From the NCBI GenBank assembly GCA_965213685.1, contig CBDBZY010000005.1, forward strand, positions 27,904-91,903: a stretch of DNA of 64,000 nt. Reading direction: 5' to 3'. The stretch's first letter is position 1; every line of letters begins with the position of its first letter. Positions 19,895 through 63,241 of this stretch are shown here, piece by piece. The position numbers and the translations under genes are program-made. Below the pieces are notes generated by a model. The model made no database searches. It worked only from the letters and a program-made list of their open reading frames with translations, and was not told the origin of the DNA. This stretch comes from a bacterium (GTDB lineage: Bacteria; UBA8248).

Positions 19895-19999
19895 GTAAAT
19901 CGCGCTCGCCGCCCGCTCCACCTCACTCGGGGTAATCTCCACCCAGTAGTGCGCGCGCCTTGCCGAGGGTCATCCCGACGCGGTAAGAGGTGTACAAAC

Positions 20000-22419: not shown

Positions 22420-22452
22420 GGATTCATCCCAAGCGTTTGAATCCATTCGGTT

Positions 22453-22502
22453 AAGGCTCCCGAGAGCAGATCAGAACAGGGCGATCTGCTCGGGAGCCTT
22501 TT
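22453..22502 (+). terminator. Long hairpin plus T-run spanning the cas2 stop; probable pre-crRNA terminator
   Basis: AAGGCTCCCGAG(AG)CAGATC-10 nt-GATCTGCTCGGGAGCCTT-TT. Confidence 0.65.
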
Positions 22503-41073: not shown

Positions 41074-44000
41074 TTACGAGACGCTCTTGCGGACTGCCTC
41101 TATCTCGGCGCGGTCAAGGCCGTAGAGCCGATAGACGAGGCGGTCGATTTCCGCTTCCGGTGCGGCTGTGTCGGCCTTCGGGTCGGCTGCTTTCGCCGCG
41201 ATGATCTCATCCACGAGGCGGACGAGGGGCCGCTGCTCCTCTCCGGATATTCGGGGGACGGGAATTTGCTCGACAACGAATTTTTCCCATTGAATAGATG
41301 CTTTCCCTAAGCTCCTCGCCAGATTCCGCGCCATCCAGGCGCCAAGCGCGCTGTTCAAAACGGCGCAGAGATACTTCAGGGACGAACCCGTAAGAACGAA
41401 CCCCTTGTTGTTGCAATACATGACCTTTTCCGAGTAGGAGAATCGACCTTCAAGGGTTATGTCCCTCCAGAACAGCTTCTCTTTGGCGAATAGATTGATG
41501 TAGCTGTCCTTCGGGTTGTTGTCCAATTCCAGCCAGTGATGCTGTCCCTCGTAGTCCGGGTTTCGTCCACTACCGGAACGTGTATATCGACACTGGCCAC
41601 GGGCCCGCAACTTCACCTCGTGCCGCGTGAGATGTTGATACACGGCAGGGTAATCATCAGGTAGAGTCTTGTGGCTACCAAACTTGGCGACTATCAGCCA
41701 TAACCCCTTCCAGTGCGCGCGCCAGCGTTCGATGTCCTGCCCGCGCAGGACGGGCTGGATGATTTCGGCGGAGCGGGGGTCCTCGTCAACGAGGGCGTTC
41801 CGCGCGGCGGCGTTGATGATGAAGGCCTCGTTGTAGCCTGTTCTGATCCCCATGTTGATCCGCACGTCCCATCCCTTGAGCGGGACGCCCCGCGCTTGTA
41901 TCTTCTCAAACGCGCCCCACTCGACGGCGGAGAGGATGCTCCAGGGCGCCTCGCCGTCCGGGTGCGCCTCGTCCCAACCCGATGCGCTTTGCGGAGGGAG
42001 GCGGGGGGGACTTGAATCGGTTCGTTTCATTTTAATGGCGGGCAGGCGGACCGCGCCATTATCTTCAAGATCGGCCGCGTCCGCCGCGTCTTTGCCCTCG
42101 CGGACCAGCAAGATGCTGGCGTCCACACTCGCCTCGAACACTTTGCTATCCCTATCATCCCAGAGGCGCAGCGGCGTGTGGGACTCGGCGAAGAAGCGGC
42201 GCAACCGCTTGCCGTATTCCGCCTTCAGCCAGCTGTTGGAGGTGATGTAGGCGAGCACGCCGGCGCCCGGACGGAGCAACCGGCAGCCGCGCTCGTAGAA
42301 GAGCTGGTAGATGTCCCCCCTGGGCGCGAAGGTCGAGAAGCGCGCGCCCTCGTATCTTTTCGCCAGTTCTCCGGCGTTTTTCTCCAGCTGGACGTAGGGC
42401 GGATTGCCGATGACGACGTCGAAGCCCCCCGACACGCCGAACATGTATTCCGGCTCGAACCAGTCCACGCTGGCGGTCTGATCGTACGGGTCCCAGCGGG
42501 CGATTCTCTCCGCGCTGTCGTGCTTGAAGCCCAGGTCTTCCAGCGCGCGGGCGAGCGCGTCCCGCAGCGCGGCGTCCCTTTTGCGCAGCAGCCGCTTGGT
42601 ATTTCGATCTGTGGCGTTGAAGTAGCGTTCGCGCACCTGCCGCAAAGCATTTTCCAGCGCCCTCACGCGGTCGCTCCCCAGCGCTTGCTGCCCCTCGTCG
42701 CCCAGACCCAGCAGCGTGTCAGTAGCGACGAAGCGCGTCTCCAGGTTCGGCAGGGGGCGGATGCCGTAATTCTCCCTTGCGTCGCCGGTCGGCTCCTGCT
42801 CGATGGCGAGCGAGATGAAAAAGCGCAGCTTGGCGATCTGGCAGGCGACGGGCTGGATGTCCACGCCGTAGATGGCGTTCTGGATGAGGTAGAGCTTGCG
42901 TCCGTAATCCGATGCCCGGTACTTCTCGAAGGTTGCGCTGATCTGCCGCAGCGCGTCCTCGCGCCGTTCCCGATTCCCGATGTCGAAGGCCGCCCCCGCC
43001 TGCGCGCGCGCCCGCTCCCTCTGGAGTTCCTCCCACAGCCGGTTGTCCGGGTCGAGGCGGCGGAGCGCGAGGGTGAGCTTCTGGAGAACACCCATCGGGA
43101 AGGCGCCGGAGCCGGCGGCGGGGTCGAGCACCCGGAGGTTGGCGATGGCGTCCACGACCGCGCGCCTCTCTGCCTTCTCGAAGAGCGTGTCGGCGTCGTT
43201 CATCGCGGCGGAATGCTCCAGAAGATAGCGCAGCCGAGCGCGCCAGGATTCCTCGTCTTCGACGGTCGGGCGGCTTTTCGCCGCCAGCGCCTCGGCGAGC
43301 GCCTCCCCCGCCATGTCGTCCACCACCCACCGGGGCGTGTAGTAGGAGCCGGTGTCCTTGCGGGCGGTGTCGCGCATCTCCGGGTTGTAGGCGGCCAGCA
43401 GGTTCTCGAACACGAGGCCGAGCAGCTCCGGGTCGAGGGCGACCTCCTGGTCTATCGGCGTGTTCTCCTCCACCGTGAACTTGTAGCGTCGGAGGATGGG
43501 GAACAGGCCCTTGTCCTCATCGAAGAACAGGCGCGCCGGCACGTCCAGCTCCCGCCTCTGCGCGGGATTGTCGGTGAAGACGTCCACCCGCCGGCCGCCC
43601 TCCCTTTTCCCCTCGAAATGGTCCAGGCAGTCGAACAGGCCGCCATTCACGAAGGGGACTTGCCGCAGCTCCTTGGCGAAGCCGTCCGGGTCGATCAGCA
43701 GGTCGCTATAGCGGTATCTGCTGAAGTCGCGGTGGGTCTTGCGGTCGCCCCCGCTGAAGGCGCGCTTGCGGATAGCCGTGTTCAGGGTGGCGAAGAACAG
43801 GTTCTGGAGCACGGCGCGGTAGTAGTCCGTGCGTGCGGGCGCGTGATCCCGGAGCGTCCGGCGTGCGAAGCGCTCCTCGAACAGGCGTTCGGGAACCAGT
43901 CCCTTCTCCTTCAGGAACCAGATGAACAGCAGGCGCGTGATCAGCCGAATCACGTGTCTCTCGGGCGAACCCGCACCCGCGCCGTCGTCGGGAAAGCGGC

Positions 44001-44718
44001 ACTCCCGGCGCGCGCGCTCAAACCATTCGAACAGGTCGCGGTAGAAGCGCCTGTTCAGCGTCTCGGTGTCGAGCGCGTCTTCCCACGCCCGGTGCAGGCC
44101 GTCAAAATCCCGCACGCCCTTTTCACGCAGGGAGGAGAGCGCCAGCTCGCCGAGAATATCGACGTGCGCCCGGTGCGGATGTTCGGAATGAATGTCCTTG
44201 ATCAAGGTCACCTTTTCCAGCACGTCGCGGCCTTTGTCCCGCTTGTGGGCGCGGCGGTGGACGACGGAGAGGGTCAGGGCGCCCCCGTGCCGGAGAAGGA
44301 GGACGACCGGCATCCGGAAGCCGCTGTTGACGGCGCGCGTCATCCCGGCCAGCTCCGTCCGCGTGTAGGCACCGCCGCCATTCAGCTCCGCCGCCACGAA
44401 CAGAAAGGACTTGTCGCGCTTCTCCTCGAACTTCGGAAACAGCGTCCGGTCGCCGTCAATCTCCTCCCCGGTGAGCTGAAAGACGATCTCCGCCGAACGC
44501 CAGCCGTCGAACAGCCGCCGCTGCCTTTCCGTCAAGTCTTTCCCGTCTTCTTTCAGCGACTCCCGCAGCCACTCCAGGAAATCGGCGACGCTCCCCACGT
44601 CTGTCGTCCGGTCGCTCCGGTAGCCGAGCGCGCCGAACAGCGTCGCCGCCCGACTCCGTAGCGAGCCGCTCCCGTTTTCCGCGAAACCGCGCAGCGCGTC
44701 CATCAGGGCTTCACGCAT
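41074..44718 (-). CDS. Type IIG/Eco57I-like N6-adenine methyltransferase with target-recognition region
   Basis: PFVNGGLF, LLGLVFENLL, TGSYYTP, LDPAAGSGAF, VIGNPPY, TaqI-C-like C-terminus. Confidence 0.9.
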   Translation of the reverse strand: MREALMDALRGFAENGSGSLRSRAATLFGALGYRSDRTTDVGSVADFLEWLRESLKEDGKDLTERQRRLFDGWRSAEIVFQLTGEEIDGDRTLFPKFEEKRDKSFLFVAAELNGGGAYTRTELAGMTRAVNSGFRMPVVLLLRHGGALTLSVVHRRAHKRDKGRDVLEKVTLIKDIHSEHPHRAHVDILGELALSSLREKGVRDFDGLHRAWEDALDTETLNRRFYRDLFEWFERARRECRFPDDGAGAGSPERHVIRLITRLLFIWFLKEKGLVPERLFEERFARRTLRDHAPARTDYYRAVLQNLFFATLNTAIRKRAFSGGDRKTHRDFSRYRYSDLLIDPDGFAKELRQVPFVNGGLFDCLDHFEGKREGGRRVDVFTDNPAQRRELDVPARLFFDEDKGLFPILRRYKFTVEENTPIDQEVALDPELLGLVFENLLAAYNPEMRDTARKDTGSYYTPRWVVDDMAGEALAEALAAKSRPTVEDEESWRARLRYLLEHSAAMNDADTLFEKAERRAVVDAIANLRVLDPAAGSGAFPMGVLQKLTLALRRLDPDNRLWEELQRERARAQAGAAFDIGNRERREDALRQISATFEKYRASDYGRKLYLIQNAIYGVDIQPVACQIAKLRFFISLAIEQEPTGDARENYGIRPLPNLETRFVATDTLLGLGDEGQQALGSDRVRALENALRQVRERYFNATDRNTKRLLRKRDAALRDALARALEDLGFKHDSAERIARWDPYDQTASVDWFEPEYMFGVSGGFDVVIGNPPYVQLEKNAGELAKRYEGARFSTFAPRGDIYQLFYERGCRLLRPGAGVLAYITSNSWLKAEYGKRLRRFFAESHTPLRLWDDRDSKVFEASVDASILLVREGKDAADAADLEDNGAVRLPAIKMKRTDSSPPRLPPQSASGWDEAHPDGEAPWSILSAVEWGAFEKIQARGVPLKGWDVRINMGIRTGYNEAFIINAAARNALVDEDPRSAEIIQPVLRGQDIERWRAHWKGLWLIVAKFGSHKTLPDDYPAVYQHLTRHEVKLRARGQCRYTRSGSGRNPDYEGQHHWLELDNNPKDSYINLFAKEKLFWRDITLEGRFSYSEKVMYCNNKGFVLTGSSLKYLCAVLNSALGAWMARNLARSLGKASIQWEKFVVEQIPVPRISGEEQRPLVRLVDEIIAAKAADPKADTAAPEAEIDRLVYRLYGLDRAEIEAVRKSVS

Positions 44719-44721
44719 CGC

Positions 44722-47700
44722 TCAGGTCTCCTCTTTCCGCCGCGCCTCGCGCGCGTCGGCGATGATGAACCACGTAATCAGCTCGAAACGCGCCGCCCCG
44801 TCCGGCTGCTCGGCTCGCTTCGAGAGCGTCGCGCCGCGCTCTCGGGCGATCGCCCGCAACTCGGCGCGGCGGAAGGTCGACGCGATGTCTTTCAGGGCGG
44901 CGTCCAGCAGTTTGTCGTATTTCTCCATTTCCTGTCCCCGCCGCGTCTGCCGGTCGAAGGCGTCCTCCAGTACCGCTATGGCCTCCGCCTTGCCGGCGGC
45001 GAGGCTCCGGAACAGGGCGAGGCACTGCTTCGGTTGTGCGAAGGTGTGGCGGACGCTTCCGTCGTCGCGGACGTGGACGAGAAAATACGGCCACAGACTG
45101 TTCGCCGTATGCCGCTCCGCCTCCCCCTTGCGCTTCAGGCAGAAGATGACGCCGGGCGGGACGGGGCCGGGCGGCCCCCCGCCGGGGAGGTCGGCGGACG
45201 GGCGGTTGTCGGCGATGGCGTAGACGCCGGCCGGCGCCGCTTCGAGTTCCGCGCGGTTTCGCTGGATGTAGCGCAGCAAATCGGCGAGGAACTCATCGAG
45301 CGTGAGGTCGCTCATGGTCACGACGTCGTCCGCATCCTCCATGTCGAGAGGCTCGTTGCGGATCCGCTTCAACTGCTCGCCCCGAAACCGCAACTCGCCC
45401 TGCGCCGCCTCCTGCGCGTTCAACAGGTCGTCGTCGCCCGTCGCCGCCGCGTCGGCGAGCGCCATGCGCGCCTCCACGCGGTTTTTCAGGTCCAGATAGC
45501 GGTCGAGATTCTCGGTCGGCCAGAAATTGAGCATGCGGACTTCGCGGTTGCGGCTTCCGAGCCGGTCGATTCGACCGAAGCGCTGCATCAGGCGAATCGG
45601 GTTCCAGTGTATGTCGTAGTTCACGACGAGGTCGCAATCCTGGAGGTTCTGCCCCTCGGACAGGCAGTCGGTCGCGATCAGAACGTCAATCTCCTCGCCG
45701 CCGCCATCCGCATTCTGGGCGCGCGGCGCGAAGCGCCCCAGAATATCGGCGAATTGCGACGCGCCCGTCGTGCTCCGGTTCCCCTCGCCGCCGGTCACCA
45801 GCCCCACGTGAACGCCGAACTCGCAGCGCATCGGCTCCGAGAGATGGGCGTACAGATAGCGGGCGGTGTCGGCGAAGGTGGTGAAGACGAGCGCCTTGCG
45901 GTTGGCGCGCCCGTCCTTATCGGCGGGGGCCGTCTTCACCTTGCGCCGCAGCGCCTCCCCCAACCTGGCCAGCTTGGCGTCGCGCGCGACGGTGACCCGT
46001 TCCGCCCGCTCGCAAATGTCCGCGAACATCTTCCTGTCCTCGCGCAGGTCGCCGCGCCAACGGTCGACGTCGAGTGCGGCCAGCCGATAGCGGCGCCTTC
46101 TGCCGACCGTGAACTCCTCGTCCTCCTCGTCCTCCGCGCCGTCTCCGGGCCAGGAGTCTATCTCCTCCTCCCCGCCGCGCTCTTTCCACGCCTCGATGCG
46201 GCGGTCGACATCGTCTATCTGGTCGAGAATGCGCTTCGCGGTCAGGGCGAAGGCGCGCACCGAGCTTTCCAGGCGCTTCAAGAGGTTCACGCGCATCATG
46301 CCGACGAGCCAGCGTTCGCGGTCGCGCTGGTCGAAGCGCAGATTCGCCTTCTCCTCGTCCAGGCTGGACTTGTCCTTCAGGTATCGCGAGGGCATGTAGA
46401 CGGCGAGGCGGAAGTCGCTGATGCGCTCGTGCAGCTCGTCATACGAAAGCGCGCCGTCGCGGTCCGTGCCCGGATGCAGGTTCTCCGGCGCCGCCCGCTT
46501 CGGGAAGCCGCCGATCCGCTTCGTTTCCTCCGGATAGAAACGGCGGAGATGGTCGCGGGAGCGGGCGATGGTGACCGCGTCCAGCAACGCCAGGAAATCC
46601 GCCCCCAGGTTTCCGACAAGCGCGGCCTTGTCCGTCTTCTCGCCCCTTTTGCGCGCATCCTCCCATCGCCTGAATTCGCGCTGGGCGACGCCGAACATCG
46701 TCTGGATGTCGCCGATGCCGAGCGCCTCGCGGAACGCGTCCCGACGCTTTTCGGTCATCAGGTATATCTGGTTGCGCAGGTCGCGCAGGCTGGTGTTCAC
46801 CGGGGTCGCCGAGAGCATCAGCACCTTGGTTCGCGCGCCATCTTTTATCACCTCCTCCAGCAGGCGGTTGTAGCGGCTGCGCCGGAGGATCGCGCCCGCG
46901 TCGTCCCGCCGGTCGCGGCCTTCGTTGCGGAAGTTGTGCGACTCGTCGATGACGACGAGGTCAAACCCGCCCCAGTGGAAGTTGGCGAGGTCGATCTTGT
47001 CCGCCTTGCCCTCGTAGCGGCTCAGGTCCGTGTGCGCCAGCACGGTATAGCCAAACCGGTCCCTCTCGAACGGGTTGTTGCGCTGGGAGGCCCAGGAGGC
47101 GTAGCGGGTCCAGTTCGCCTCCAGTTTCTTGGGGCAGAGCACCAGCACCCGCTCGTTGCGCAACTCGAAAAACTTGATCACCGCGAGCGTCGTCCAGGTC
47201 TTCCCGAGTCCCACGCTGTCGGCGATGATGCAGCCGTTGTGCCGGAGGAGCCGGTTGACGGCGTTCGTCGCCCCGTCCCGCTGAAACCCGTAAAGATTCT
47301 TCCATATCTCGGTGTCGTGGAGATGAATATCGTGGAGCAGGCCTTCCTGCTCCCTGTGCCGGGCGATCCAGTCCGCGAAAACATGGAACAGGGTCTTGTA
47401 ATAGACAAACTCCGGCGCATACCGCCTGCCGAGGCGCTCCAGGGCGGCCAGAACTTCCGCCTTCACGTCCCGGGCAATGGCTTCGTCGCTCCAGAGCTCC
47501 TCGAACCATCCGAGGAGGAGTGCGCGGTCGGCTTCGGCGCGGACCTCCAGATTGAGCTCTATGTTGGGCTTCGCGCCATAGCCAAGCCCGCGCCGCGTGA
47601 AATTGGAGCTGCCGGCGAGCGCGGCACCACCGCCTCCGTCCGCGACGTGGTAGAGCTTCCCGTGCAGGAAACCCGCGGACTGGACGGTGCGGACGTCCAC

Positions 47701-48024
47701 CTTCTTCTTGATCCAGTCGCCGCAAGCCCTTGCGAGCGCCTTCTGCGCCAGGACGCGACGCAGCTCGATGCCGCTGTCGTCGTTCAACCGGAAATCCCTG
47801 CCGGCGTCCCCGCGCGGGTCCATCGACGCGACCCCGTACGGATCGCCATAGAGAAACCGGACGCGGCCCGCCTCCTCCAGCTGATGGCGCAGGGCCTCGT
47901 ATGCGTAGATCGTGAAATAGGCGGAGACGATGGAGACGTTCGAGCCGGTCTTGATTCTCTCGCGCAAGAAATCCCCGACGCGGCGGTGCCTGTTGTCGAT
48001 AACGGTGCCGCCGCTTGGCGTCAT
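44722..48024 (-). CDS. Phospholipase-D-like nuclease fused to SNF2 helicase
   Basis: SAYFT, LHGKLY...GSSNFT (HKD-type), ADSVGLGKT, DESHNFRN, LSATPVN, LSEGQNLQD, QRFGRIDRLG. Confidence 0.9.
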   Translation of the reverse strand: MTPSGGTVIDNRHRRVGDFLRERIKTGSNVSIVSAYFTIYAYEALRHQLEEAGRVRFLYGDPYGVASMDPRGDAGRDFRLNDDSGIELRRVLAQKALARACGDWIKKKVDVRTVQSAGFLHGKLYHVADGGGGAALAGSSNFTRRGLGYGAKPNIELNLEVRAEADRALLLGWFEELWSDEAIARDVKAEVLAALERLGRRYAPEFVYYKTLFHVFADWIARHREQEGLLHDIHLHDTEIWKNLYGFQRDGATNAVNRLLRHNGCIIADSVGLGKTWTTLAVIKFFELRNERVLVLCPKKLEANWTRYASWASQRNNPFERDRFGYTVLAHTDLSRYEGKADKIDLANFHWGGFDLVVIDESHNFRNEGRDRRDDAGAILRRSRYNRLLEEVIKDGARTKVLMLSATPVNTSLRDLRNQIYLMTEKRRDAFREALGIGDIQTMFGVAQREFRRWEDARKRGEKTDKAALVGNLGADFLALLDAVTIARSRDHLRRFYPEETKRIGGFPKRAAPENLHPGTDRDGALSYDELHERISDFRLAVYMPSRYLKDKSSLDEEKANLRFDQRDRERWLVGMMRVNLLKRLESSVRAFALTAKRILDQIDDVDRRIEAWKERGGEEEIDSWPGDGAEDEEDEEFTVGRRRRYRLAALDVDRWRGDLREDRKMFADICERAERVTVARDAKLARLGEALRRKVKTAPADKDGRANRKALVFTTFADTARYLYAHLSEPMRCEFGVHVGLVTGGEGNRSTTGASQFADILGRFAPRAQNADGGGEEIDVLIATDCLSEGQNLQDCDLVVNYDIHWNPIRLMQRFGRIDRLGSRNREVRMLNFWPTENLDRYLDLKNRVEARMALADAAATGDDDLLNAQEAAQGELRFRGEQLKRIRNEPLDMEDADDVVTMSDLTLDEFLADLLRYIQRNRAELEAAPAGVYAIADNRPSADLPGGGPPGPVPPGVIFCLKRKGEAERHTANSLWPYFLVHVRDDGSVRHTFAQPKQCLALFRSLAAGKAEAIAVLEDAFDRQTRRGQEMEKYDKLLDAALKDIASTFRRAELRAIARERGATLSKRAEQPDGAARFELITWFIIADAREARRKEET

Positions 48025-48036
48025 CCAACAGGCCCT

Positions 48037-48435
48037 TCAGTCCAAAAAGGCACTTAACCGCCGCTTTAGAGCATCCTCATCGGCGAGTTCACACTCCCAT
48101 AGCGTAAGTCCGCTCCAACCAGAGGCTGTTAGTTCGTCGAGTTGGCGTGAATGACGCTCGACATTCCGCTTGATTTTTGCTTTCCAGTACTCGGCGTTGG
48201 TTTTTGGCAGACGATTCCCGCGCTTGCAAGAATGCCCATGCCAGAAACACCCATGTACGAAAATAACCTTTCGACGCGAGACGAACACTATGTCAGGCTT
48301 GCCCGGCAAGTCCTTCCTGTGTAATCGATAGCGATACCCCAGCCCATGCAGAAGTCGTCGGACCATCATCTCGGGCCTGGTGTCTCGGCCCTTGACCGCG
48401 CGCATAATCCGGCTACGCTGCTCGGAAGGCGTCAT
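48037..48435 (-). CDS. vsr: Very-short-patch repair endonuclease
   Basis: RSRIMRAVKGRDTRPE, LPGKPDI, FVHGCFWHGH, WEC. Confidence 0.95.
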   Translation of the reverse strand: MTPSEQRSRIMRAVKGRDTRPEMMVRRLLHGLGYRYRLHRKDLPGKPDIVFVSRRKVIFVHGCFWHGHSCKRGNRLPKTNAEYWKAKIKRNVERHSRQLDELTASGWSGLTLWECELADEDALKRRLSAFLD

Positions 48436-48504
48436 TACGAGCTGTGAATAGCCGTCGGAGCGGACTTCCGCTGCGCTTCGCCGCCCCGGGCAAAATACGC
48501 CTCC

Positions 48505-49239
48505 TTAACCAAGCAAATCGATCCAGTCATCTCGATATTTGATAGCTTTCCATATATGTTTAGGTTCTATTTGTGGCACATAGCGATTGATAACAAAGCG
48601 ACGAGATGAGCCGGGCACCAATCGAAAAATTGTGAATTGCGCACCGTGTGGTTGCCAAGTGAAGCAATGATCGCTAGTGGCTTTGTCACGGCCCTCTAAG
48701 TTCCCTCGACTATTGACGCGCCACTCGTAGTTGTCTACCGGGAATCGGGCGATCTCCTCCTCGAACAATAAAAATTCTTGGGATGACATATTGCGAAGCA
48801 ATACCATGAGACGCAGGTCGTCATGCTCATTAAGCGATGCGTTGACGCGCTCGTTCCAGATAGATAACACCGCGCGGCCGGTGGCGGCCACGTCGGCCCT
48901 AGGATCGGAGATGCCCAAAGAGTAATCCGGGCTGTTCCTGCCTGATATAAGCCGCACTCTAAGGGCGTTGTGCGGATCCTTCTGCTTAACAGTTTTGGCG
49001 GACCATCCGCATCCGTTGCGCACAACATCCACTACGCCAAGCGGACTGGAGCGATGAAATCCATCCACGCCTTTCGCCAGCAGCTCGCCGTAATCATCCC
49101 CCTTGATATCTTCGTCCCCCAGCGCGAGTCGATGCACCAAGTGTCTACCCATACGGAGGACAACATCGTCAGGTATCTGGCCAATGGGCCACGGGCCACG
49201 CAACACATTGGAACTACCGCGCAATTTCGGCGAACGCAT
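48505..49239 (-). CDS. Putative Type II restriction endonuclease
   Basis: Lies between a C5 methyltransferase and vsr, overlapping the methyltransferase stop; VDV...SAKT resembles a PD-(D/E)xK variant; lower GC. Confidence 0.65.
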   Translation of the reverse strand: MRSPKLRGSSNVLRGPWPIGQIPDDVVLRMGRHLVHRLALGDEDIKGDDYGELLAKGVDGFHRSSPLGVVDVVRNGCGWSAKTVKQKDPHNALRVRLISGRNSPDYSLGISDPRADVAATGRAVLSIWNERVNASLNEHDDLRLMVLLRNMSSQEFLLFEEEIARFPVDNYEWRVNSRGNLEGRDKATSDHCFTWQPHGAQFTIFRLVPGSSRRFVINRYVPQIEPKHIWKAIKYRDDWIDLLG

Positions 49240-50146
49240 GAATCAATCTTTCCATCGTTGCTTGAATCATCGGCACGGGAACCGCGTTTCCGGCCTGCTT
49301 GCGCGCCTGCGCGTCCGAATCGGCCAAATGGAATGAATCGGGGAACCCTTGAAGGCGAAACATTTCACGCGGAGTAAGTCGCCGTTCGCCATCTACGAGC
49401 AAGTAGTTATAGCTCGCTCCGGCCCTTAGAGCGCACGAGAAAGGATGACTTGATATGTTGCCCCCCTTATTCTCATGCCAAATTGAAGGATGGAATTTGG
49501 ATTTATGTCGAGCTTGACGGGAGCGGCGGATGCGTTCAGATACGAAATGCTTCTTATCAGGCGCCTTCTCCAGGACTGAAGACAGGGGCGTCCGTAACAT
49601 AGGAGCGGGCCAGTCGAAATCTTCCAGTCCGCCCAAGGCCGCGACTATCAAAACTCGCTCTCTTTTTTGCGGCAATCCATAGTCAAGAGCATTTAAGACG
49701 CGCCAGCGCGTATCGTAGCCGAGCAATTCCAGCGTCGTGAGAATATAGCCCATAATTTGTCCATTTGACGCCGTAGCGAGTTGACGGACGTTTTCGAGCA
49801 ACACGGCGGCGGGTCGCTTCTCGGCAATAATTCGCGCAATTTCGAGAAAAAGAAATCCTCGCTTTTCCCGGAATCCCTCGCGCTTTCCGATAATGGAAAA
49901 CGGCTGGCAGGGAAAACCCGCGCAAAGCAGATCATGATCAGGGACTTTGCAGGCGGGGACTAAGGATATATCGCCCTCGGGAGATATTCCGAAATTACGC
50001 TCATAAACAGCTCGGCAATTCGCGTCAATATCGCAGGCGAAGACGCACTCCATGTCCAGTGCGGTAGCAGCCAGATGAAAACCACCTACTCCGCAAAACA
50101 GATCAGCGAATTTCAGGGATTGACTAGCCACCCGCAACATTTCCAA
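49214..50146 (-). CDS. DNA (cytosine-5)-methyltransferase
   Basis: DLFCGVGG, GFPCQPFS, ENV, PQKRER, RLTPRE...LQGFP, GNAV. Confidence 0.95.
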   Translation of the reverse strand: MEMLRVASQSLKFADLFCGVGGFHLAATALDMECVFACDIDANCRAVYERNFGISPEGDISLVPACKVPDHDLLCAGFPCQPFSIIGKREGFREKRGFLFLEIARIIAEKRPAAVLLENVRQLATASNGQIMGYILTTLELLGYDTRWRVLNALDYGLPQKRERVLIVAALGGLEDFDWPAPMLRTPLSSVLEKAPDKKHFVSERIRRSRQARHKSKFHPSIWHENKGGNISSHPFSCALRAGASYNYLLVDGERRLTPREMFRLQGFPDSFHLADSDAQARKQAGNAVPVPMIQATMERLIHAFAEIAR

Positions 50147-50293: not shown

Positions 50294-51367
50294 TTACCCC
50301 CGGATCGGCTCGATCACGCTCAGGGTCTGCGCACCGGGGGTGGGTATCCACATCGATTTCTGGCCCTCGCCGCCCGCCACGATGAGGATGAGGGCGTCCG
50401 CGCGGGCGAGGATGGGCACGGCGGCCTCCGGGTCCGTCCTGTCCACCCAGACGGGGAACGCGGGGCCCTTGGACTTGCCCCGCACCCCCACGTGCTTCCA
50501 GGGCTTGCGCGCCCGCTCGAAGAGGTAGCGCTTGACGTCCGCCTTGCGCCACCCCGCCCGCGCGATATGCGCCGCGTGCTCGGGGGCCATGACGAGCACG
50601 GGCTCCCCCTGGGAGGAGAGGTTGTTCCCGCCGAGCGTCGCCATCGAGTCCGCGTAGCCGAAGAGCAGGGCGTGGGGGTCGGTGTTGTAGTTGTCCGTGA
50701 TGCAGTGGGGCGCCTCGCCGCACACCAGCGTCACCGTGCTGTCCTCCGGCGGGAAGCCACGCTCCACGTGGTACGGCTCCCAGGGGTTCGCCTCCTCGTT
50801 CTCGGCGATGCAGCAGGTGTATTTTCCGGGGTGGGCGTGCTGGGCGCGGTCCAACTCGCCGGGCACAGCCCCGCCCAGGTTGATGAGGCAGAGCCTGAGG
50901 GCGCGGCCAATCGTCGCGTTCGCCCGCCAGCCGGGGCCGAACAGGCCCGAGCCGCAGTTGATGCGGAGACGCTTCGCGATGGGGCCGTTCACGATGATGA
51001 GCGCAGTGGCGGGGTGCGTCGTCGTCTGCCGGTGGCTCAGGCCGTAGCGCGGCCTGGTGACGGCGCGGAGGGAGGCGACGACGACCGGCAGGTATTCCGG
51101 CGCGCAGCCGGCCATCACGGCGTTCACCGCTATCGCGCGCGCCGTCGCCACTCCCATGAGGGGCGGCACCTCGGCTATCTCCGCATCCGGCGCGCCCGCC
51201 CATCCTGCGAGCATGTTCTCCACGCGCCCCCGCGTGGGCGGCACGATGGGCAGGCCGTCCGTCCAGCCGCGCTCGTAGAACCAGGCGTTCACCTCCTCCA
51301 GGGAACCGGAGAGCGGCAACGCCCGCCGACCCGCCTCGGGGAGGGGTTCCTCGACGTTTTCAGCCAC
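50294..51367 (-). CDS. Conserved hypothetical protein of the family usually adjacent or fused to UGSC selenoproteins
   Basis: GTG 51367 after GGGGAGG; WTDGLPIVPPT, AVNAVMAGC, RANATIGRALRL, IAENEE, PWEPYHVERG. Confidence 0.75.
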   Translation of the reverse strand: MAENVEEPLPEAGRRALPLSGSLEEVNAWFYERGWTDGLPIVPPTRGRVENMLAGWAGAPDAEIAEVPPLMGVATARAIAVNAVMAGCAPEYLPVVVASLRAVTRPRYGLSHRQTTTHPATALIIVNGPIAKRLRINCGSGLFGPGWRANATIGRALRLCLINLGGAVPGELDRAQHAHPGKYTCCIAENEEANPWEPYHVERGFPPEDSTVTLVCGEAPHCITDNYNTDPHALLFGYADSMATLGGNNLSSQGEPVLVMAPEHAAHIARAGWRKADVKRYLFERARKPWKHVGVRGKSKGPAFPVWVDRTDPEAAVPILARADALILIVAGGEGQKSMWIPTPGAQTLSVIEPIRG

Positions 51368-51381
51368 GGGCCGCCTCCCCC

Positions 51382-51999
51382 TTATTTTGGACAAAGATGG
51401 CGGGGGCCCATGAACCTCTTCTCCCCGTATTCGGCCTGCAGCGCGCGGGCGTCGCCCGTGAGCGCGCGGAGAACCTCCCCCACGACGGCGTCCGCCTTGG
51501 GGTGCGCATCCTCCCTCGCGGGCGCGGCCAGGGGATGCTCCATCTCGACGACGGGCAGGCCGCGATAGCCCTGCCTTTGCGCTATCGCCCGGGCGCTGTG
51601 GCTGAAGCCGCGGCTCACGATGACGCAGGCGGGGCTGCCCATCCGCTCCAGCGAGACTGCGTCGCGGACACTCCACAACGTGGAGGAGCCTCAGTGGCCC
51701 ACGCCGACGAGAACCGCGTCGCAGCGCGCGCGCAACTCCTCCAGAATCGCGGGCGACGCCGGCTGGGCGAGGTGATGCTTCCGCCTCTGGACGACCTCGC
51801 GGATGCCGACGCTGGCCCGCAGACGGTCGCGCACCCGATCCAGCACCCAGTCGGAGAACTCCTTGTTGTTCTCGAGCACCCCGAGGACGGCGCCCGCAAG
51901 CGTCGCGGGCCTTGCGCGCAAGGCCGCCTCCGCCATTCTGGGAACGCCGGCGGGAGAGATGAGCTCCCCATACCTCTCCTCGCCCGTGTCCGCGCTCAT
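51382..51999 (-). CDS. UGSC-family selenoprotein, 205 aa, in-frame TGA (Sec) at 51693-51691, motif U-G-S-S
   Basis: ORFs 51691..51999 and 51382..51678 are in the same frame and separated by one TGA: ...AVLVGVGH-U-GSSTLWSVRDAVSLERMG.... selA and selB are in the window; a hairpin follows the TGA. Confidence 0.85.
51666..51690 (-). promoter_or_regulatory. Candidate SECIS hairpin
   Basis: Directly 3' of the UGA: GGC-UC-CUCCAC-GUU-GUGGAG-U-GUC; apical loop begins with G. Confidence 0.45.
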
Positions 52000-52026
52000 G
52001 CAGCCTCCCGGAAATGACCGCGCGTC

Positions 52027-52833
52027 CTATTTTCCCGTGAAGACGGGCTTTCGCTTCTCCATGAACGCCGTGCGGCCCTCCCTGTAGTCCGCGCTGTCGA
52101 AGCACTCCTGCGAGAGCCTGGCGATCATCCCGAAATCGCGGTCCGCTCCGTCCTTCACCACCTCGCCGATGGTGAGCTTGGACGCCTTGACGGAGAGCGG
52201 CGCGTTGTTCGCGATGGCGGCGGCCATCTCGACGGCGGCGTCCTCGAGGGCGTCGGCGGGCCAGACGCCGTTGACCAGCCCGATCTCGAGCGCGTCCGCC
52301 GCCGGGATGCGCCGGGCCGTGAAGAGAATCTCCTTCGCCTTCGCCGGCCCCACCAAATCGACGAGCTGCTTGAGGCTGTCGAAGCCATAGGCGATGCCGA
52401 GGCGACCGGCCGGGATGCCGAATTGCGCGTCATCGGAGGCCAGGCGGATGTCGGCCTGCAGGGCGACCCCCAGGCCGCCGCCCAGGCAATAGCCCCGAAT
52501 CATGGCGATCAGCGGCTTTTTCATGCCCGCCATGACGCGCTTGGCCTCCTCGGAAATCCGCGTGTATTCGGCGGCCTGCGCGGCGTTGCTCCTGTTTTTG
52601 GCGAACTGGGATATGTCCGCCCCCGAGACGAAGGCCTTCTCGCCCGCACCCCGCATCACCACGACGCGGACAGCGTCATCCTCCTCGAAGCCCCGAAGTA
52701 TCTCGGCCATCCCCCCCCACATCTCGAGGGAGAGCGCGTTTCTGCGCTCCGGGTTGTTGAATATCATCCAGCCCACTCCCGCATTCGTCTCGCACGTCAT
52801 CTTCTGTGTCGATAACCGCATTCCACGCTCCAT
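52027..52833 (-). CDS. Enoyl-CoA hydratase/isomerase
   Basis: NPERRNAL, AFVSGADI, GYCLGGG, DYREGRTAFMEKRKPVF. Confidence 0.93.
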   Translation of the reverse strand: MERGMRLSTQKMTCETNAGVGWMIFNNPERRNALSLEMWGGMAEILRGFEEDDAVRVVVMRGAGEKAFVSGADISQFAKNRSNAAQAAEYTRISEEAKRVMAGMKKPLIAMIRGYCLGGGLGVALQADIRLASDDAQFGIPAGRLGIAYGFDSLKQLVDLVGPAKAKEILFTARRIPAADALEIGLVNGVWPADALEDAAVEMAAAIANNAPLSVKASKLTIGEVVKDGADRDFGMIARLSQECFDSADYREGRTAFMEKRKPVFTGK

Positions 52834-52878: not shown

Positions 52879-54067
52879 TCAGACGATGCCCGCGTCCCGC
52901 AACTGTCCGATTCGCCCCGCATCGTAGCCCATTTCCCGCAAAATCTCCTCCGTATGCGCACCCAGCCCAGGGGTCGCGTTCCGCATCCTCTGCGGCGTGC
53001 GCGTCAGCTTCACCGCCTGGCCCACCACCCGGATCGGCCCCATCTTGGGATGTGGAACCTCCGGGCTCATGTTCAGCCCCCGTACCTGGGGGTCGGCGAA
53101 CGTCTCCTCCACCGTGTAGATGGGCCCGCAGGGGATCCCCGCCTCGTTGAGGATGTCGATCCACTCCGCGCAGGGCTTCGTTCGCGTTCGGCGGGCGATG
53201 GTTTCGTGCAACGCCTCGCGGTTCTCGTAGCGCCTCGAGAGGGTCGCGTAATCCGGGTGCCCGATGAGCTCCGGGAGGCCGAGCGCGACCGCGAGCCTCT
53301 CCCAGAGATGCTGGGGGCCGGACTGGATGTTGATCCGCCCGTCCGCCGTCTCGAAAACCCCCGCCGGCAGGAAGGTGGGGTGGTTGTTCCCCTGCTGGCC
53401 GGGCACCTCGCCGGACTGGAGATACCTGGCGGCCTGGAAGTCCATCATCTGAATCTGGGCCTCGAGCAACGAGGTGTGCACCCACTGCCCCTCGCCCGAG
53501 ACCTCCCGCTCCAGCAGGGCGATGAGAAGCCCCTGTGCGAGCATGAAGCCGGCGGAGAGGTCGGCTATCGGGATGCCCACGCGCATGGGGCCTTCCCCCG
53601 GTTTTCCGGTGACGGACATGAGGCCGCTCAACCCCTGGGCGAATCTGATCGAGGCCCGGGCGCTTGCGGTAAGGGCCCTCCTGCCCGAACCCCGATATGC
53701 TGCCGTAGACGATCCGCGGGTTGACCTTGCGGCACGACTCGTAATCGACGCCGAGGCGGTGCTTCACGTCGGGCCGGTAGTTCTCGACGATGAGGTCGGC
53801 GCCTTTCACCATTCGGAAGAATATCTCGCGTCCCTCCTCCTCCTTGAGGTTCAGCGACATGCTCCTTTTGTTGCGGTGAAGGTTTTGCGCCTCGTAGCCG
53901 TGTCGGGGACTCGCCATGTTGTCCGAACGCCCGCTCGCGGGGGGCGCTTCTATCTTGACGACGTCCGCCCCCCAGTCGGCGAACTGCCGAACCGCCGTGG
54001 GGCCGGCGCGCGCGCGGGTCAGGTCAAGCATCCGGAAGCGGGAAAGAGGCAGGGAATGGTCCGACAC
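52879..54067 (-). pseudogene. CaiB/BaiF class III CoA-transferase with a 1-nt insertion at ~53643
   Basis: The N-half (DWGADVVKIE, HRNKRS, ENYRP, SISGFGQ) and C-half (SGLMSVTG, PCGPI) are in different frames. Removing one base from ATTCGCC restores DQIAQGLSGLMS. Confidence 0.85.
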
Positions 54068-54531: not shown

Positions 54532-56781
54532 TCAGGCGGGCGCGGGCGCCGCCGTTGGCCCGTTACGCCGGCTCCGTTGATACGCATACAGCCCGGCGAA
54601 GAGCACCAGCGCCAAAAGCTGCACCACGGGGCGCGAGCCGCCCGTTATCCCCGTGATGAGCGAGGGCCTGAAGGCCGAGACGCACACCAGCATCAGCAAC
54701 GCCCGCTCGCCCCAGTTGCAATGATCGGCGAAATAGCCCTGGAGTGCGGACGCGAAGGCGAACATCGCCGCCAGGGAGACCAGGCATACCCAGGCGATTT
54801 TCAAGATGTCGTTAATCCAGAGGATCTCGCCCTTCGGGCCGACGCCCTGCATCATCAGCAACTCCAGGTTGTAGATGAACACGAACGGCAGGACGGCGGT
54901 TCTCAGGTCGTAGACGAACCCCTGCACGCCCGTCTGGATGGGGTCGGACTTGGCTATCGCCGAGGCGGCGAACGCGGCGAGCCCCACCGGGGGCGTGTCA
55001 TCGGCCAGGATGCCGAAATAGAAGACGAACAGGTGGGCCGCGAGGAGGGGAACGACCAGGCCCGCCTTGCCGCCGAGGCTCACGATGACGGGTGCGGTGA
55101 GCGTCGCCATGACGATGTAGTTCGCCGTCGTGGGCAGCCCCATCCCCAGGACGAGGGAACACACCGCGGTGAGCAGGAGCATGAGCACCACGTTGCCCAG
55201 GGAGACGATCTCGATCAGCTCGATGAACCGGCCGCTCAGCCCCGTGAGCGTGACGGTGCCGACGATGATGCCCGCGGCCGCAGTCGCCACGCCGATGCCC
55301 ATCATGTTCTTGGCCCCCGCCATCAGCCCCTGCCACACGTCGCCGAAGCTGCGCCCGAAGCCATCGAGCACCCCATTCCACAGGCGCGTTTCGAGCTCCT
55401 GGAAATGCGCCTCGCCGAACAGCTCGCGCAGGTGGGCGACCCCCGTCTCCCTTTTCATGTCGCGGAGGATGAGGATGGTGTTCTCCATGGGCCGCTGGAT
55501 GACGATGATCGCCATGGTCAGCAGGATGGCGTTGAACGCGGACGCCACGGCCGACATGCGCAGGATGACCAGGGTATAGATGAGCGCGAGGATGGGAACG
55601 ACGTAATGGATGCCGCCTATGAGCGTGCTCCAGAAGGAGGGGAGCTCATCCGCCTCGAGCGGCCGCAGGTTGAGCTTGAGCGCCTCGAGATGCACCACGT
55701 AGAAAAGGGCGATGTAGGAGAGCAGCGCCGGCAGTATGGCGGCGCGCACCACGTCGAGATACGCGAGGCCCAAGAACTCCGCCATGATGAACGCGGCGGC
55801 GCCCATCACCGGCGGCATGAGCTGCCCGTTCGTGCTCGCGCCCACTTCCACGGCGCCCGCCTTGTAGGGCGGCAGGCCGACCTTCTTCATCAGCGGAATC
55901 GTGAAGGTTCCCGTCGTCGCCACGTTCGCGATGGAGGAGCCCGAGACGAGGCCGGTCATGCCCGAGGCGACCACCGCCGCCTTGGCGGGTCCGCCGCGAA
56001 AGCGGCCAAGCGCCGCGAAGGCCACCTGGACGAAGTAGTTCGCCGCCCCCGCCTTGTCGAGCAGCGAGCCGAACAGAACGAAGAGGAACACGAAGCTCGT
56101 GGACACGCCGATGGGCACGCCCCAGATGCCGCTGTCGCTCAGATACATGTGGTCCACGACGAATTCGAGCGGAATGCCCGGATGCGCGATGAAAGAGGGC
56201 ATGTAGGGGCCCACGAAGCAGTAGAGCAGAAAGAGGATGGCGAGAATCGGCAGCGCGGGGCCGAGCGCCCGCCGCGCGGCCTCGAGCAGGAGAACCACCA
56301 GAATCGTTCCCACGATGACGTCGCGCTGGATGGGAAGACCCGAACGCTGGATGATGTTCACGTAGTCCAGGGCCATATACAGCGCGCCCAACCCCGCGAG
56401 GAGGGCGAGGAGGTAGTCGTACCAGGGGATGACCTCCCGCGTGGATCGCTCGATGCGCATGAAGCCGGGGAAAACCTGGAGGGATACGCGCTGAATCCAG
56501 CCCTCGCCCGGCTTTTTCGTCCCCGGGAAGGCGAGATAGACCATGGTGATGGCGAAGGTGAGGTGAATGCTTCTGGCGATGATGGAGTTCATCGGAGTGT
56601 AGGCGATGAAGAGCTGGAACAGGGACCAGGACATCGCCAACACGGAGACGAGCCAAGCCGTCATGTTTTTGGGGCTTCTGCCGCCGGATTCCGCCTCGGC
56701 GGCGATCTCCTCCGCCGCTCGCCTCGACTCCTCATCCAGATCCGCGTTCAAGGCGTTCGCGGGATCATGCGGTCCGCTCAT
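54532..56781 (-). CDS. TRAP transporter fused 4TM/12TM permease (TAXI type)
   Basis: GGPAKAAV, SGSSIANV, GQLMPPVMGAAAFIMAE, LGMGLPTTANY, TPPVGLAA. Confidence 0.93.
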   Translation of the reverse strand: MSGPHDPANALNADLDEESRRAAEEIAAEAESGGRSPKNMTAWLVSVLAMSWSLFQLFIAYTPMNSIIARSIHLTFAITMVYLAFPGTKKPGEGWIQRVSLQVFPGFMRIERSTREVIPWYDYLLALLAGLGALYMALDYVNIIQRSGLPIQRDVIVGTILVVLLLEAARRALGPALPILAILFLLYCFVGPYMPSFIAHPGIPLEFVVDHMYLSDSGIWGVPIGVSTSFVFLFVLFGSLLDKAGAANYFVQVAFAALGRFRGGPAKAAVVASGMTGLVSGSSIANVATTGTFTIPLMKKVGLPPYKAGAVEVGASTNGQLMPPVMGAAAFIMAEFLGLAYLDVVRAAILPALLSYIALFYVVHLEALKLNLRPLEADELPSFWSTLIGGIHYVVPILALIYTLVILRMSAVASAFNAILLTMAIIVIQRPMENTILILRDMKRETGVAHLRELFGEAHFQELETRLWNGVLDGFGRSFGDVWQGLMAGAKNMMGIGVATAAAGIIVGTVTLTGLSGRFIELIEIVSLGNVVLMLLLTAVCSLVLGMGLPTTANYIVMATLTAPVIVSLGGKAGLVVPLLAAHLFVFYFGILADDTPPVGLAAFAASAIAKSDPIQTGVQGFVYDLRTAVLPFVFIYNLELLMMQGVGPKGEILWINDILKIAWVCLVSLAAMFAFASALQGYFADHCNWGERALLMLVCVSAFRPSLITGITGGSRPVVQLLALVLFAGLYAYQRSRRNGPTAAPAPA

Positions 56782-56932
56782 TCACCCCCGCCCCCAAATG
56801 ATTTCTTCCGAATCTCACGCGCAAGCACAAAATCAAGATACCAGAGAAAAAACGCAACGCATAAAGCCAAGGGGAGCCGCCGGAGCCGGAGCCGCCGCCC
56901 CCCCTGGCCTTATGCGCGCAGGTTCGACCGGA

Positions 56933-57904
56933 TTACTTCTTCATCAGGCCCTTTTCCTTGTAGTACCGCTCGGCGCCCGGATGGAAGGGAGCCGAGAGGC
57001 CCTTGAGCATGTCCTTCTCCTGCAGGAACTTGAACGCCGCGTGCGTGGTGCGGAACTGATCGAGGTTGTCAAAGATGGTCTTCACGACGTTGTAGACGAC
57101 GTCGTTGGGCTGCTTGTCGCTGGTCACGAAGGTGGCCTTCACCGCGTAGGTGGGCACATCCTTGGCGACGCCCTTGTAGACGCCGCCCGGGATGGTCGTC
57201 ATCACGTAGTAGGGCTTGCCGGCCACCAGATTCATGATGCCCGCCGAGTTCACGGGAATCATGCGGATCGCCGTGCTGTTGGATATCTCGAGGCCGCCGC
57301 CCCAGGGGTTGCCCACGGTGTAGAAGAACGCGTCGATTTTCTTGTCCACCAGCGCGCGGTTCGCCTCGTTCTGCTGCAGGCCCTCCGCCTTGATGTCCTT
57401 GTTCTGGTCGATGCCGTAGATTTTCAGGATGTCTCTCGCGTTTCCGCGCTGGCCGGAGCCGGGGTTGCCGATGTTGACGCGGCGTCCCTTGATGTCGGAC
57501 ACCTTCGTGATGCCCGAATCGGCGCGCGCCACGAGCATGATGGTTTCCGCGTGAACGCTGAAGACGCTCCGCAGCCCCTTGTAGGCCTTGCCCTTCCAGT
57601 TGGCCGCGCCGTTGTAGGCCTGCCAGTTCCTGTCGGACTGCGCGACGCCGAAGTTCAGGAGTCCGCGCTTGATGGCGTTGATGTTGAACACCGAGCCGAG
57701 TGCGGGACGCCCGATGCAGTTGTAGCCCTTGCTCTTGAGGTTCTTGTTCACCAGTTTGCAGACGTTGAGCGCCACCTGATAGTAGACGCCCGTGGTGGAG
57801 CCGCCGCCGACCACCAGGAACTTTGCGGCACTGGCGGGAACCGCCGTTCCGGCCAGCGAAACGGCCACCGCAAAAGCGAACGCGAACTTCATTGCCCTTT
57901 TCAT
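56933..57904 (-). CDS. TAXI-family TRAP substrate-binding protein
   Basis: GGGSTTGVYY, GSVFNI, AQSD, IGNPGSG, PFHPGAERYY. Confidence 0.93.
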   Translation of the reverse strand: MKRAMKFAFAFAVAVSLAGTAVPASAAKFLVVGGGSTTGVYYQVALNVCKLVNKNLKSKGYNCIGRPALGSVFNINAIKRGLLNFGVAQSDRNWQAYNGAANWKGKAYKGLRSVFSVHAETIMLVARADSGITKVSDIKGRRVNIGNPGSGQRGNARDILKIYGIDQNKDIKAEGLQQNEANRALVDKKIDAFFYTVGNPWGGGLEISNSTAIRMIPVNSAGIMNLVAGKPYYVMTTIPGGVYKGVAKDVPTYAVKATFVTSDKQPNDVVYNVVKTIFDNLDQFRTTHAAFKFLQEKDMLKGLSAPFHPGAERYYKEKGLMKK

Positions 57905-58402
57905 CAGAAAATCTCCTTGCGTGTGATGAGGTTCGATAACACATTTGCCCATCGACTCCGATGGACGTCCCTTAGTTTCGTCTTAGTGTGCGCAAACGAC
58001 ATATCCCGACACCCGCCGTCGACGGCGAATCATACCGGTTTGCGGAAACCCTCAAAATGCGCCGACTCCGGTTTTCTTAGTTTCGATGGATTATCATCTT
58101 CAAGAGCGTCGTTTTTGATGCCTCCACTATAGCGAGCGGAAAACATGGATGTCAATACAATTTACAATTTTTCGTCGGGAGGCGTGAAGTGCGGCTCCCG
58201 ACCCCGCCGCCGGGCGGATGCGGGAGGACGCGCCATGCTATGCTTCGCCCCGTATTCCTGTCGTCTCCGGGCCGACGCCCCATGCCCGACGCATTCCTCC
58301 GAGACGCGCCCGGAAGGAGCGGGCGGGAACGACGCGCGCCCAGGCGCATGACTATAGGTTTTTCCGCCTCTCCTCCGCCATCGCATCGAGGGTACTCTTT
58401 AA

Positions 58403-62221: not shown

Positions 62222-63241
62222 ATGAACGACTTCATCGCCCCAGGAGAAACGATGCCCGCATCCACATCCTTGCCCCTCGCTTCGGGAGGCGCCGGCAAAT
62301 TCGCGGAGCGCATCCGGGAAGACATGCCGCACCTGAGCCGCACGGCGCTCTCCACCCTCCAGATCAACGTGGGGAAATACTGCAACCAGACCTGCGCGCA
62401 CTGCCATGTGGGCGCGGGCCCGCACCGCAAGGAGATCATGACCGAGGAGACGGCGAGCCGCATCCTCGAATGGCTCGAGGGGACGCAAATCCCCACCGTC
62501 GACGTCACGGGAGGCGCACCCGAGCTCAACCCCCAGTTCCGGCGCATCGTCGACCGCGCCCGCCAGAGGGACCGGCACGTGATGGTGCGCTCGAACCTCT
62601 CGGTCGTGTTCGAGCCCGGAGAAGAGGACTTGATCGATTTCTACCGGGCGAGCCGGGTGGAGCTCGTCTGCTCCCTCCCCTGCTATCTGGAGGAGAACGT
62701 GGACGCCCAGCGCGGAGACGGCGTGTTTGAAAAATCCGTCCGCGCACTGCGCGCGCTGAACGAAGCGGGGTTCGGCCCCCCGGGAGAGTTGCAACTCAAC
62801 CTTGTCTATAACCCGGTGGGCGATTACCTCCCGCCCCCGCAGGAGGCGCTGGAGGCCGAATACAAGCGGGAGCTCCTCCGGCGCTACGGCATCCGCTTTC
62901 ACCGCCTCTACACCATCACCAACATGCCCATCACCCGCTTTGCGAGCTTCCTGAAGGCGAGCGGAAAATGGGAGAGCTACATGGCGCGGCTGCGCGAGGC
63001 CTACAACCCCGAGACGATCTCCGGCCTGATGTGCCGAAGCCTCATCAGCGTGGGATGGGACGGCGCCCTGTATGATTGCGACTTCAACCAGATGCTCGGC
63101 ATGTCCCTGGGCAACGGGACGCCCCTGAAACTCTGGGACGTCGCGCCCGCCGATCTGCTGGGCCGGGAGATTCTCCTGGACGACCATTGCTTCGGCTGCA
63201 CGGCCGGTGCGGGCTCCTCCTGCGGAGGCGCTCTTGCGTAG
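62222..63241 (+). CDS. arsS: ArsS-family radical SAM protein (DUF3641)
   Basis: LQINVGKYCNQTCAHCHV, DVTGGAPE, SLPCY, YDCDFNQML, HCFGCTAGAGSSCGG. Confidence 0.85.
   Translation: MNDFIAPGETMPASTSLPLASGGAGKFAERIREDMPHLSRTALSTLQINVGKYCNQTCAHCHVGAGPHRKEIMTEETASRILEWLEGTQIPTVDVTGGAPELNPQFRRIVDRARQRDRHVMVRSNLSVVFEPGEEDLIDFYRASRVELVCSLPCYLEENVDAQRGDGVFEKSVRALRALNEAGFGPPGELQLNLVYNPVGDYLPPPQEALEAEYKRELLRRYGIRFHRLYTITNMPITRFASFLKASGKWESYMARLREAYNPETISGLMCRSLISVGWDGALYDCDFNQMLGMSLGNGTPLKLWDVAPADLLGREILLDDHCFGCTAGAGSSCGGALA

Follow-up and report, generated by a model that had tools for sequence, protein, structure and literature searches.

An open reading frame that is interrupted by TGA and resumes in the same frame beyond it can be a gene cut short by a stop, or a gene in which the TGA is read as selenocysteine (Sec). 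This question arises on the minus strand of the window (the whole 64-kb stretch of DNA analyzed here) at 51382..51999, where a first-pass annotation had joined two fragments through the TGA into a selenoprotein related to the UGSC family. A second question follows from the motif around the TGA. Proteins of this family characteristically carry [U/C]-G-S-C; here the fourth position is serine, and one may ask what a Sec with no cysteine beside it in the motif would react with, and whether the answer lies in the same polypeptide at all.

A reading frame interrupted by TGA

Reading through the TGA yields a predicted selenoprotein gene of 205 codons (51382..51999, minus strand) that begins with an ATG at 51997-51999, behind a GGGAGG ribosome-binding site at 52004-52009 on the same strand, and ends with a TAA at 51382-51384. 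Its only in-frame TGA (51691..51693, minus strand) stands in the context GGC CAC TGA GGC TCC TCC ACG and corresponds to Sec103, such that the read-through product bears the sequence G-V-G-H-U-G-S-S, with the motif H102-U103-G104-S105-S106 encoded at 51682-51696 on the minus strand. Under translation table 11 the same DNA appears as two ORFs, 51691-51999 (102 aa) and 51382-51678 (98 aa). As the first-pass annotation had claimed, the two share one frame and join into a single protein of 205 residues with U at position 103. The GC3 values of the halves, 0.88 and 0.85, are the coding pattern of this 64% G+C window. Its warning that gene callers would split the gene is likewise borne out by public protein sets, which carry two "hypothetical protein" halves. 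Among the 80 matches of a short-protein search, 51 are N-terminal halves that stop at the residue before the TGA (50 of them terminating in G-[VI]-G-H and one in V-A-V-G-H), and about 25 are C-terminal pieces that begin at an internal Met. A Nitrospinae bin annotated by NCBI has both halves on one contig under adjacent locus tags.

The read-through protein matches the Pfam family PF24696 (UGSC) over model positions 2-171 of 172, at 151.5 bits versus a threshold of 25 (E 3.2e-44), and the NCBIfam equivalog NF041046 at 116.2 bits, below the curated cutoff of 125. The family motif is only partly present: U-G-S is there, and position 4 is Ser. An exhaustive HMMER search returned 882 relatives at E <= 0.001, the best 150 of which, together with the query and 8 earlier matches, make up an alignment of 159 rows. 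In the U column of this alignment, 143 rows show Cys, 9 show a different residue, and 7 are gapped; 4 of these 7 are fragments that terminate immediately ahead of the column. Hence the TGA does fall on the cysteine of the UGSC homologues. The replacement of the second family cysteine by serine, also reported at first pass, holds as well, position 4 being Cys in 129 of the 159 rows and Ser in 17. Three fused relatives (P0128, P0130, and P0137) have Ile or Ser at the U column instead of Cys or Sec, retaining the UGSC domain without its presumed catalytic residue; this residue is therefore not indispensable throughout the UGSC family.

Could the TGA nevertheless be a genuine stop, or have arisen by nonsense mutation or faulty sequencing, with the halves constituting two genes or a pseudogene? 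Gene callers do report two halves, and at least one probable indel error or pseudogene, in a CoA-transferase gene, lies nearby. However, the TGA is shared with at least 47 other species-level genomes, in which both halves are intact and in frame; the Cys forms of the same clade are continuous ORFs; and SECIS-like hairpins are confined to the TGA forms, which together leave a true stop scarcely credible. Nor is TGA reassigned genome-wide, as 14 of the window's 32 Pfam-backed genes end in it as an ordinary stop. The comparisons thus show, at the level of sequence, that 51382-51999 encodes one predicted selenoprotein of 205 amino acids from a separate clade, H-[U/C]-G-[S/A]-S, within the UGSC superfamily.

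The genes selA and selB, previously noted in the window, are both found there by their Pfam domains: selA at 7535-9199 (plus strand; Pfam SelA, 500 bits) and selB at 10101-12041 (plus strand; GTP_EFTU plus three SelB-specific domains). An alpha/beta-hydrolase gene is located between them. Neither tRNA-Sec nor selD was found within the 64-kb window. Three further genes in the window may be mentioned here. A class V aminotransferase or cysteine-desulfurase-like gene (12038-13231, plus strand) shares its first 4 nt with the end of selB; its product has best NCBIfam matches of the SufS/CsdA types and a weak match to the selenocysteine lyase SclA, all below cutoff, and may supply selenium. An ArsS-type arsenosugar radical SAM "(seleno)protein" gene (62222-63241, plus strand; TIGR04167, 440 bits) is a Cys form, its product ending in ...SSCGGALA before a TAG stop. 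An EgtD-like histidine-specific methyltransferase gene (28169-29206, minus strand; Methyltransf_33, 369 bits) sits beside a large MFS protein, and its presence near selenium genes might reflect a link to ergothioneine or selenoneine-type chemistry.

A candidate recoding hairpin

In the available text of PMC13188914 (bSECISearch model), the bacterial SECIS consensus comprises a loop of 3-9 nt on an upper stem of 4-16 bp, a G within the first two loop positions that is usually followed by G or U, a spacing of 16-37 nt from the UGA to the apical loop, and a free energy no higher than -7.5 kcal/mol. The best SECIS candidate downstream of the UGA, CGUUGUGGA-GUG-UCCGCGACG (51660..51680, minus strand), is a 9-bp stem whose GUG loop (51669-51671) is situated 19 nt past the UGA and whose free energy is -11.0 kcal/mol, within all four constraints of the consensus. 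This is not the hairpin to which attention had first been drawn. The latter, CUCCAC-GUU-GUGGAG (51671..51685, minus strand), does exist, as had been claimed, and starts 6 nt past the UGA, but as a SECIS it falls outside both the spacing and the energy ranges, with its loop only 11 nt past the UGA and a free energy of -6.7 kcal/mol on its own. The two hairpins have the segment GUGGAG in common and are consequently mutually exclusive.

Which of the two is the more plausible recoding signal? Folding of the window's RNA prefers the hairpin at 51671-51685 in its minimum-energy structure, and the loop of this hairpin begins with GU, as a SECIS loop might. Conservation was compared across the 13 Sec forms with this type of hairpin (the window, L001-L009, L023, L060, and L069), amounting to 11 distinct rows. 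In these, the stem of the 51671-51685 hairpin is paired in 92.4% of cells, and the 9-bp stem in 94.9%. None of the pairs of the former is changed on both sides, whereas the latter has two double changes, from G-C to C-G in L023 and from G-C to A-U in L069. Values matching those observed for the 9-bp stem arose in 11 of 500 shuffles; the covariation is thin, at 2 compensatory cells in 11 distinct rows, and these bases are also under coding constraint. The distant Sec forms L060 and L069 have a different 5' arm in the 51671-51685 hairpin, as do 35 further Sec forms, whose hairpin sits further downstream. Taken with its spacing (11 nt vs. 16-37) and energy (-6.7 vs. -7.5 kcal/mol or lower), these differences make it unlikely that the hairpin at 51671-51685 is itself the SECIS, and it probably is not. 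Taken as a whole, the 71-nt fold does not exceed its shuffles in stability (z = -0.63). A long-range stem at 51641-51669 in the window's fold was dropped from consideration, being absent, by eye, in L001 and L005.

Beyond this comparison set, the other 35 Sec forms, mostly betaproteobacterial, carry another hairpin (CGUGA loop, +24 nt) that is paired in 89.5% of cells and shows one double change. A single protein clade therefore harbors two hairpin solutions: a GUG or GUA triloop at +19, and CGUGA at +24. A script that applies the four constraints to minimum-energy folds only accepted a hairpin in each of the 48 TGA forms and in not one of the 16 Cys forms among the loci listed, a contrast that is phylogenetically clustered, with 14 of the 16 Cys forms in Alphaproteobacteria, and thus represents few independent events. 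Rfam returned no SECIS or other family in searches of the site and of the whole window, its 8 weak matches lying far below the gathering scores. In the proposed mechanism, the hairpin at 51671-51685 would melt when the ribosome arrives at the UGA, and SelB would recognize the 9-bp, GUG-loop hairpin at 51660-51680.

Serine at motif position 4

To what extent is the serine a peculiarity of this gene? Related loci were fetched by way of the better-conserved protein encoded directly downstream, here termed the partner; at least 537 of 578 candidate stretches were confirmed, and 80 loci were taken from species-representative genomes. UGSC domains were located in these loci and the window by profile search of their six-frame translations. 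The resulting UGSC-domain matches number at least 95 including the window, with TGA at the U column in 66, TGC in 19, TGT in 2, TCA in 1, and a gap in 7. The pattern H-[U/C]-G-[S/A]-S occurs in at least 64 genes, namely, 48 with TGA (the window included), 15 with TGC, and 1 with TGT. Sec forms among the loci listed come from 31 Betaproteobacteria, 1 Gammaproteobacterium, 1 member each of Nitrospinota, Acidobacteriota, and Thermodesulfobacteriota, 3 bins labeled Actinomycetes, and 9 other bins, and Cys forms from 14 Alphaproteobacteria and 2 Actinomycetota. The Nitrospinota-like relatives among the Sec forms are the Nitrospinota bin L001, whose partner protein is 89% identical to the window's, and 8 other bins at 86-89%.

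A FastTree tree of 231 rows places the window within a set of 65 rows with a support of 99, of which 63 have H.G.S; this support is the sole measure of the monophyly of the H-x-G-x-S clade. A second, separate group without the fourth cysteine, D-C-G-T-S, appears in the same tree. The serine singled out by the first-pass annotation is therefore real, but it does not belong to this genome in particular, as at least 64 genes in several phyla share it. Given this spread and the supported tree set, Ser at motif position 4 is, on the sequences compared, an old, clade-defining trait and no private mutation. At several loci (L041, L028, L033, L039, L026, L017, L037, and L053), two or three UGSC-type genes of differing motif classes adjoin, with H-U-G-S-S, G-U-G-S-C, and fused D-C-G-T-S side by side, an arrangement that suggests families of paralogous modules.

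The partner protein and known systems

The partner gene (P0160; 50294..51367, minus strand; 357 aa) begins 14 nt beyond the selenoprotein stop, with a GTG start at 51365-51367 and a ribosome-binding site, GGGGGAGG, at 51374-51381 on the minus strand. Its product belongs to a large and nameless family: at least 7984 of 8000 scored candidates are relatives at E <= 0.001, typically 60-67% identical apart from a close group at 74-90%, and those that bear a name are all "hypothetical". It matches no Pfam or NCBIfam family (a meaningful Pfam match was found in 0 of 60 members) and no PDB chain by sequence, and its matches in the ESM Atlas are "hypothetical protein" clusters only. What this protein does have is a persistent association with UGSC domains. 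It is 56% identical over 327 residues to residues 228-554 of a natural fusion, P0016, a 556-aa protein with a C-G-A-S-bearing UGSC domain at its N-terminus. Such fusions recur, and all 17 proteins of at least 300 aa among the 150 best UGSC matches carry the partner domain C-terminal to UGSC. In the 80 loci listed and the window, 85 of 90 partner domains have the U/C codon of a UGSC gene within 900 nt on the same strand. Relative to the partner, 68 of these 85 linked UGSC genes are Ser-4 forms located upstream, 12 are classic forms downstream, and 5 are classic forms upstream.

The first-pass annotation had offered resolution by a partner as one consequence of the missing cysteine, and this protein, encoded in one operon with the selenoprotein, fused to UGSC domains elsewhere, and bearing two conserved cysteines, is a candidate for that role. 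Among partners of Ser-4 forms, 90% retain Cys88 and 99% retain Cys186; among partners of classic forms, the figures are 100% and 94%. A cysteine specific to the partners of the Ser-4 clade was sought as compensation for the lost one, and none was found in 90 partner domains; an in-frame TGA occurs in 0 of 93. The partner domain is probably the "Unknown_1" of a 2008 GOS paper, to judge from the available part of that source (PMC2398784).

The model of the selenoprotein (pLDDT 93.2) is a (beta-alpha)5, flavodoxin-like fold in which Sec103 lies between strand 95-101 and helix 104-119, beside His102. Its fold matches in the PDB are weak (TM 0.32-0.47) and flavodoxin-like or Rossmann-like, with no thioredoxin-fold protein among those listed. 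A "nucleophile elbow", the pattern small-x-nucleophile-x-small-small, is typical of alpha/beta-hydrolases, and we take the local G-H-U-G-S-S to resemble it. The partner model has a pLDDT of 89.0 and a weak match to class I fumarate hydratases.

These folds and associations bear on two other ways in which a lone Sec might function. The protein could be a stand-alone mono-selenol oxidoreductase that relies on a small thiol or a glutaredoxin-type protein to resolve its selenenylsulfide, the neighboring gene being only loosely related in function. In the available portions of the literature, U-x-x-S is a recognized selenoprotein redox motif, as in arsenate reductase (PMC1088965; PMC2398784), and 133 of the best 150 UGSC-family matches are indeed single-domain proteins of less than 300 aa. 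A loosely related neighbor, however, is at odds with the 85 of 90 adjacencies among the loci listed and the window and with the 17 natural fusions, and the fold is neither thioredoxin-like nor ArsC-like in the PDB search, so that stand-alone action seems quite improbable. Alternatively, Sec103 may be a ligand of a metal or iron-sulfur center shared with the partner, to which Cys88 and Cys186 would contribute other ligands. The partner has exactly two near-universal cysteines in addition to conserved His118, His179, His200, His221, and His264; its best PDB folds are class I iron-sulfur fumarate hydratases (E 4e-4 to 7e-4, probability 0.8-0.97); and partners linked to the classic U-G-S-C often possess two extra cysteines, at columns 115 (65%) and 142 (53%). 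But those fold matches are weak, with TM of 0.25-0.36 and rmsd of 8-19 A, and the partner's sequence matches neither a PDB chain nor a Pfam family, which renders a shared metal center doubtful.

The gene neighborhood provides a further lead. Directly upstream, 27 nt before the selenoprotein ATG, an enoyl-CoA hydratase gene (52027..52833, minus strand) is syntenic in L001-L009, followed by a family III CoA-transferase gene (52879..54067, minus strand) and a TRAP-type carboxylate transporter (54532..57952, minus strand; syntenic in L002-L009), consisting of a fused DctM-type membrane protein (54532-56781, minus strand) and a TAXI/NMT1_3 binding protein (56933-57952, minus strand). In the direction of transcription, the order in the window and L002-L009 is binding protein, TRAP membrane protein, CoA-transferase III, enoyl-CoA hydratase, selenoprotein, and partner. 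The CoA-transferase gene is frameshifted in the window by one extra T near 53643 (at 53640-53646, "GATTCGCC" vs. "GA-TCGCC") and is intact in four close relatives; either the assembly has an indel here or the gene has recently become a pseudogene. Across the 80 loci listed, the recurring neighbors are TctC (39), MmgE/PrpD (25), ABC ATPases (24), CoA-transferase III (13), asparaginase (13), enoyl-CoA hydratase (11), and GntR/FCD regulators (11), a set indicative of carboxylic-acid import and breakdown. Since Betaproteobacteria have TctC genes in great number, the TctC count weighs little. This gene context suggests that the selenoprotein and its partner are the two subunits of an enzyme that takes part in carboxylic-acid catabolism.

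Downstream of the partner gene, the window takes on a different character. A restriction/defense island (41074-50146, minus strand) directly adjoins it, containing an Eco57I-type methylase with a TaqI_C domain, a PLD-SNF2 helicase, an ORF without an assigned role, and a C5 cytosine methylase. The C5 methylase (49217-50146) and the ORF at 48508-49239 were found in 0 of the 80 related loci listed, so at least that end of the island looks like an insertion. Farther away, a type II CRISPR-Cas locus (19999-26673) comprises an array of 36-nt repeats, spaced at a period of 66 nt and divided into three blocks between about 19999 and 22290, and, beyond it, cas2 (22471-22800), cas1 (22797-23762), and cas9 (23644-26673), all on the minus strand.

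Taken jointly, the evidence is best explained by a Sec-using Ser-4 clade whose member here is recoded through the 9-bp SECIS and whose selenoprotein and partner make up one enzyme, a reading to which we assign a probability of roughly 0.7. In this enzyme, Sec103, next to His102, would function as a lone selenolate nucleophile or redox center and, lacking an intramolecular resolving cysteine, would work against the substrate or against Cys88 and Cys186 of the partner, and the pair would serve the catabolism of an imported carboxylic acid; this proposed chemistry of Sec103 is drawn from its position and context only. More tentatively, and with appreciably less confidence, the H-U-G-S-S protein and its partner may constitute an unrecognized, widespread two-subunit selenoenzyme of carboxylic-acid catabolism in which one Sec, carried by the flavodoxin-like subunit, completes an active or metal site made of two invariant partner cysteines. 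If so, the "UxxC redox motif" assumed since 2008 would not be the essence of UGSC chemistry, and a Sec site would turn out to be built on a partner family of thousands that has no Pfam or NCBIfam model.

How does this system relate to what has been described? The available parts of the literature list the UGSC family first in marine metagenome selenoproteomes, with a UGSC/Unknown_1 fusion already in print (PMC2398784), cover it in reviews (PMC9312934; PMC13188914), and count its proteins among the most abundant predicted selenoproteins of aquatic metagenomes, with no function assigned (PMC2398784; PMC13188914). A literature search found no paper with both "UGSS" and "selenocysteine". The family and one fusion are thus already known, and the Ser-4 branch is widespread and undescribed. 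A large Sec-using clade without the second cysteine argues against a simple intramolecular selenenylsulfide cycle, and its constant pairing with the partner, as neighbor or as fusion, defines a concrete two-protein system to express and assay. The NCBIfam cutoff misses the Ser-4 clade, and the genes of this clade are split into halves; as a result, the selenoproteins of Nitrospinota-like bacteria and Betaproteobacteria have probably been undercounted.

Like other members of the UGSC family, the window protein is about 200 aa long with a full-length Pfam match, and has Sec/Cys in the same column after the strand end G-x-G-[DH], followed by G and a small residue. It differs in having Ser instead of Cys at position 4 and His instead of Asp before Sec, in scoring below the NCBIfam cutoff, and in its placement in a separate, well-supported clade. 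The "likely Trx-like fold" given for UGSC in the available text of the 2008 paper (PMC2398784) is not borne out by the flavodoxin-like model predicted here. The hairpin, too, has a feature at variance with the bacterial SECIS consensus, as it overlaps an alternative upstream hairpin. With Sec-ArsC and other U-x-x-S or C-x-x-S proteins, as far as the accessible portions of PMC1088965 and PMC2398784 describe them, the window protein shares a lone Sec/Cys with Ser three residues on; unlike the ArsC-type proteins, to which it has no sequence or fold relation, it has a partner domain adjoining or fused. The class I fumarate hydratases differ in domain order and have no sequence similarity to this pair, whose small subunit is a flavodoxin-like Sec protein. 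They nevertheless offer a lead, though only a lead, in that they too combine two subunits or a fusion with carboxylic-acid substrates and furnish the best fold match of the partner.
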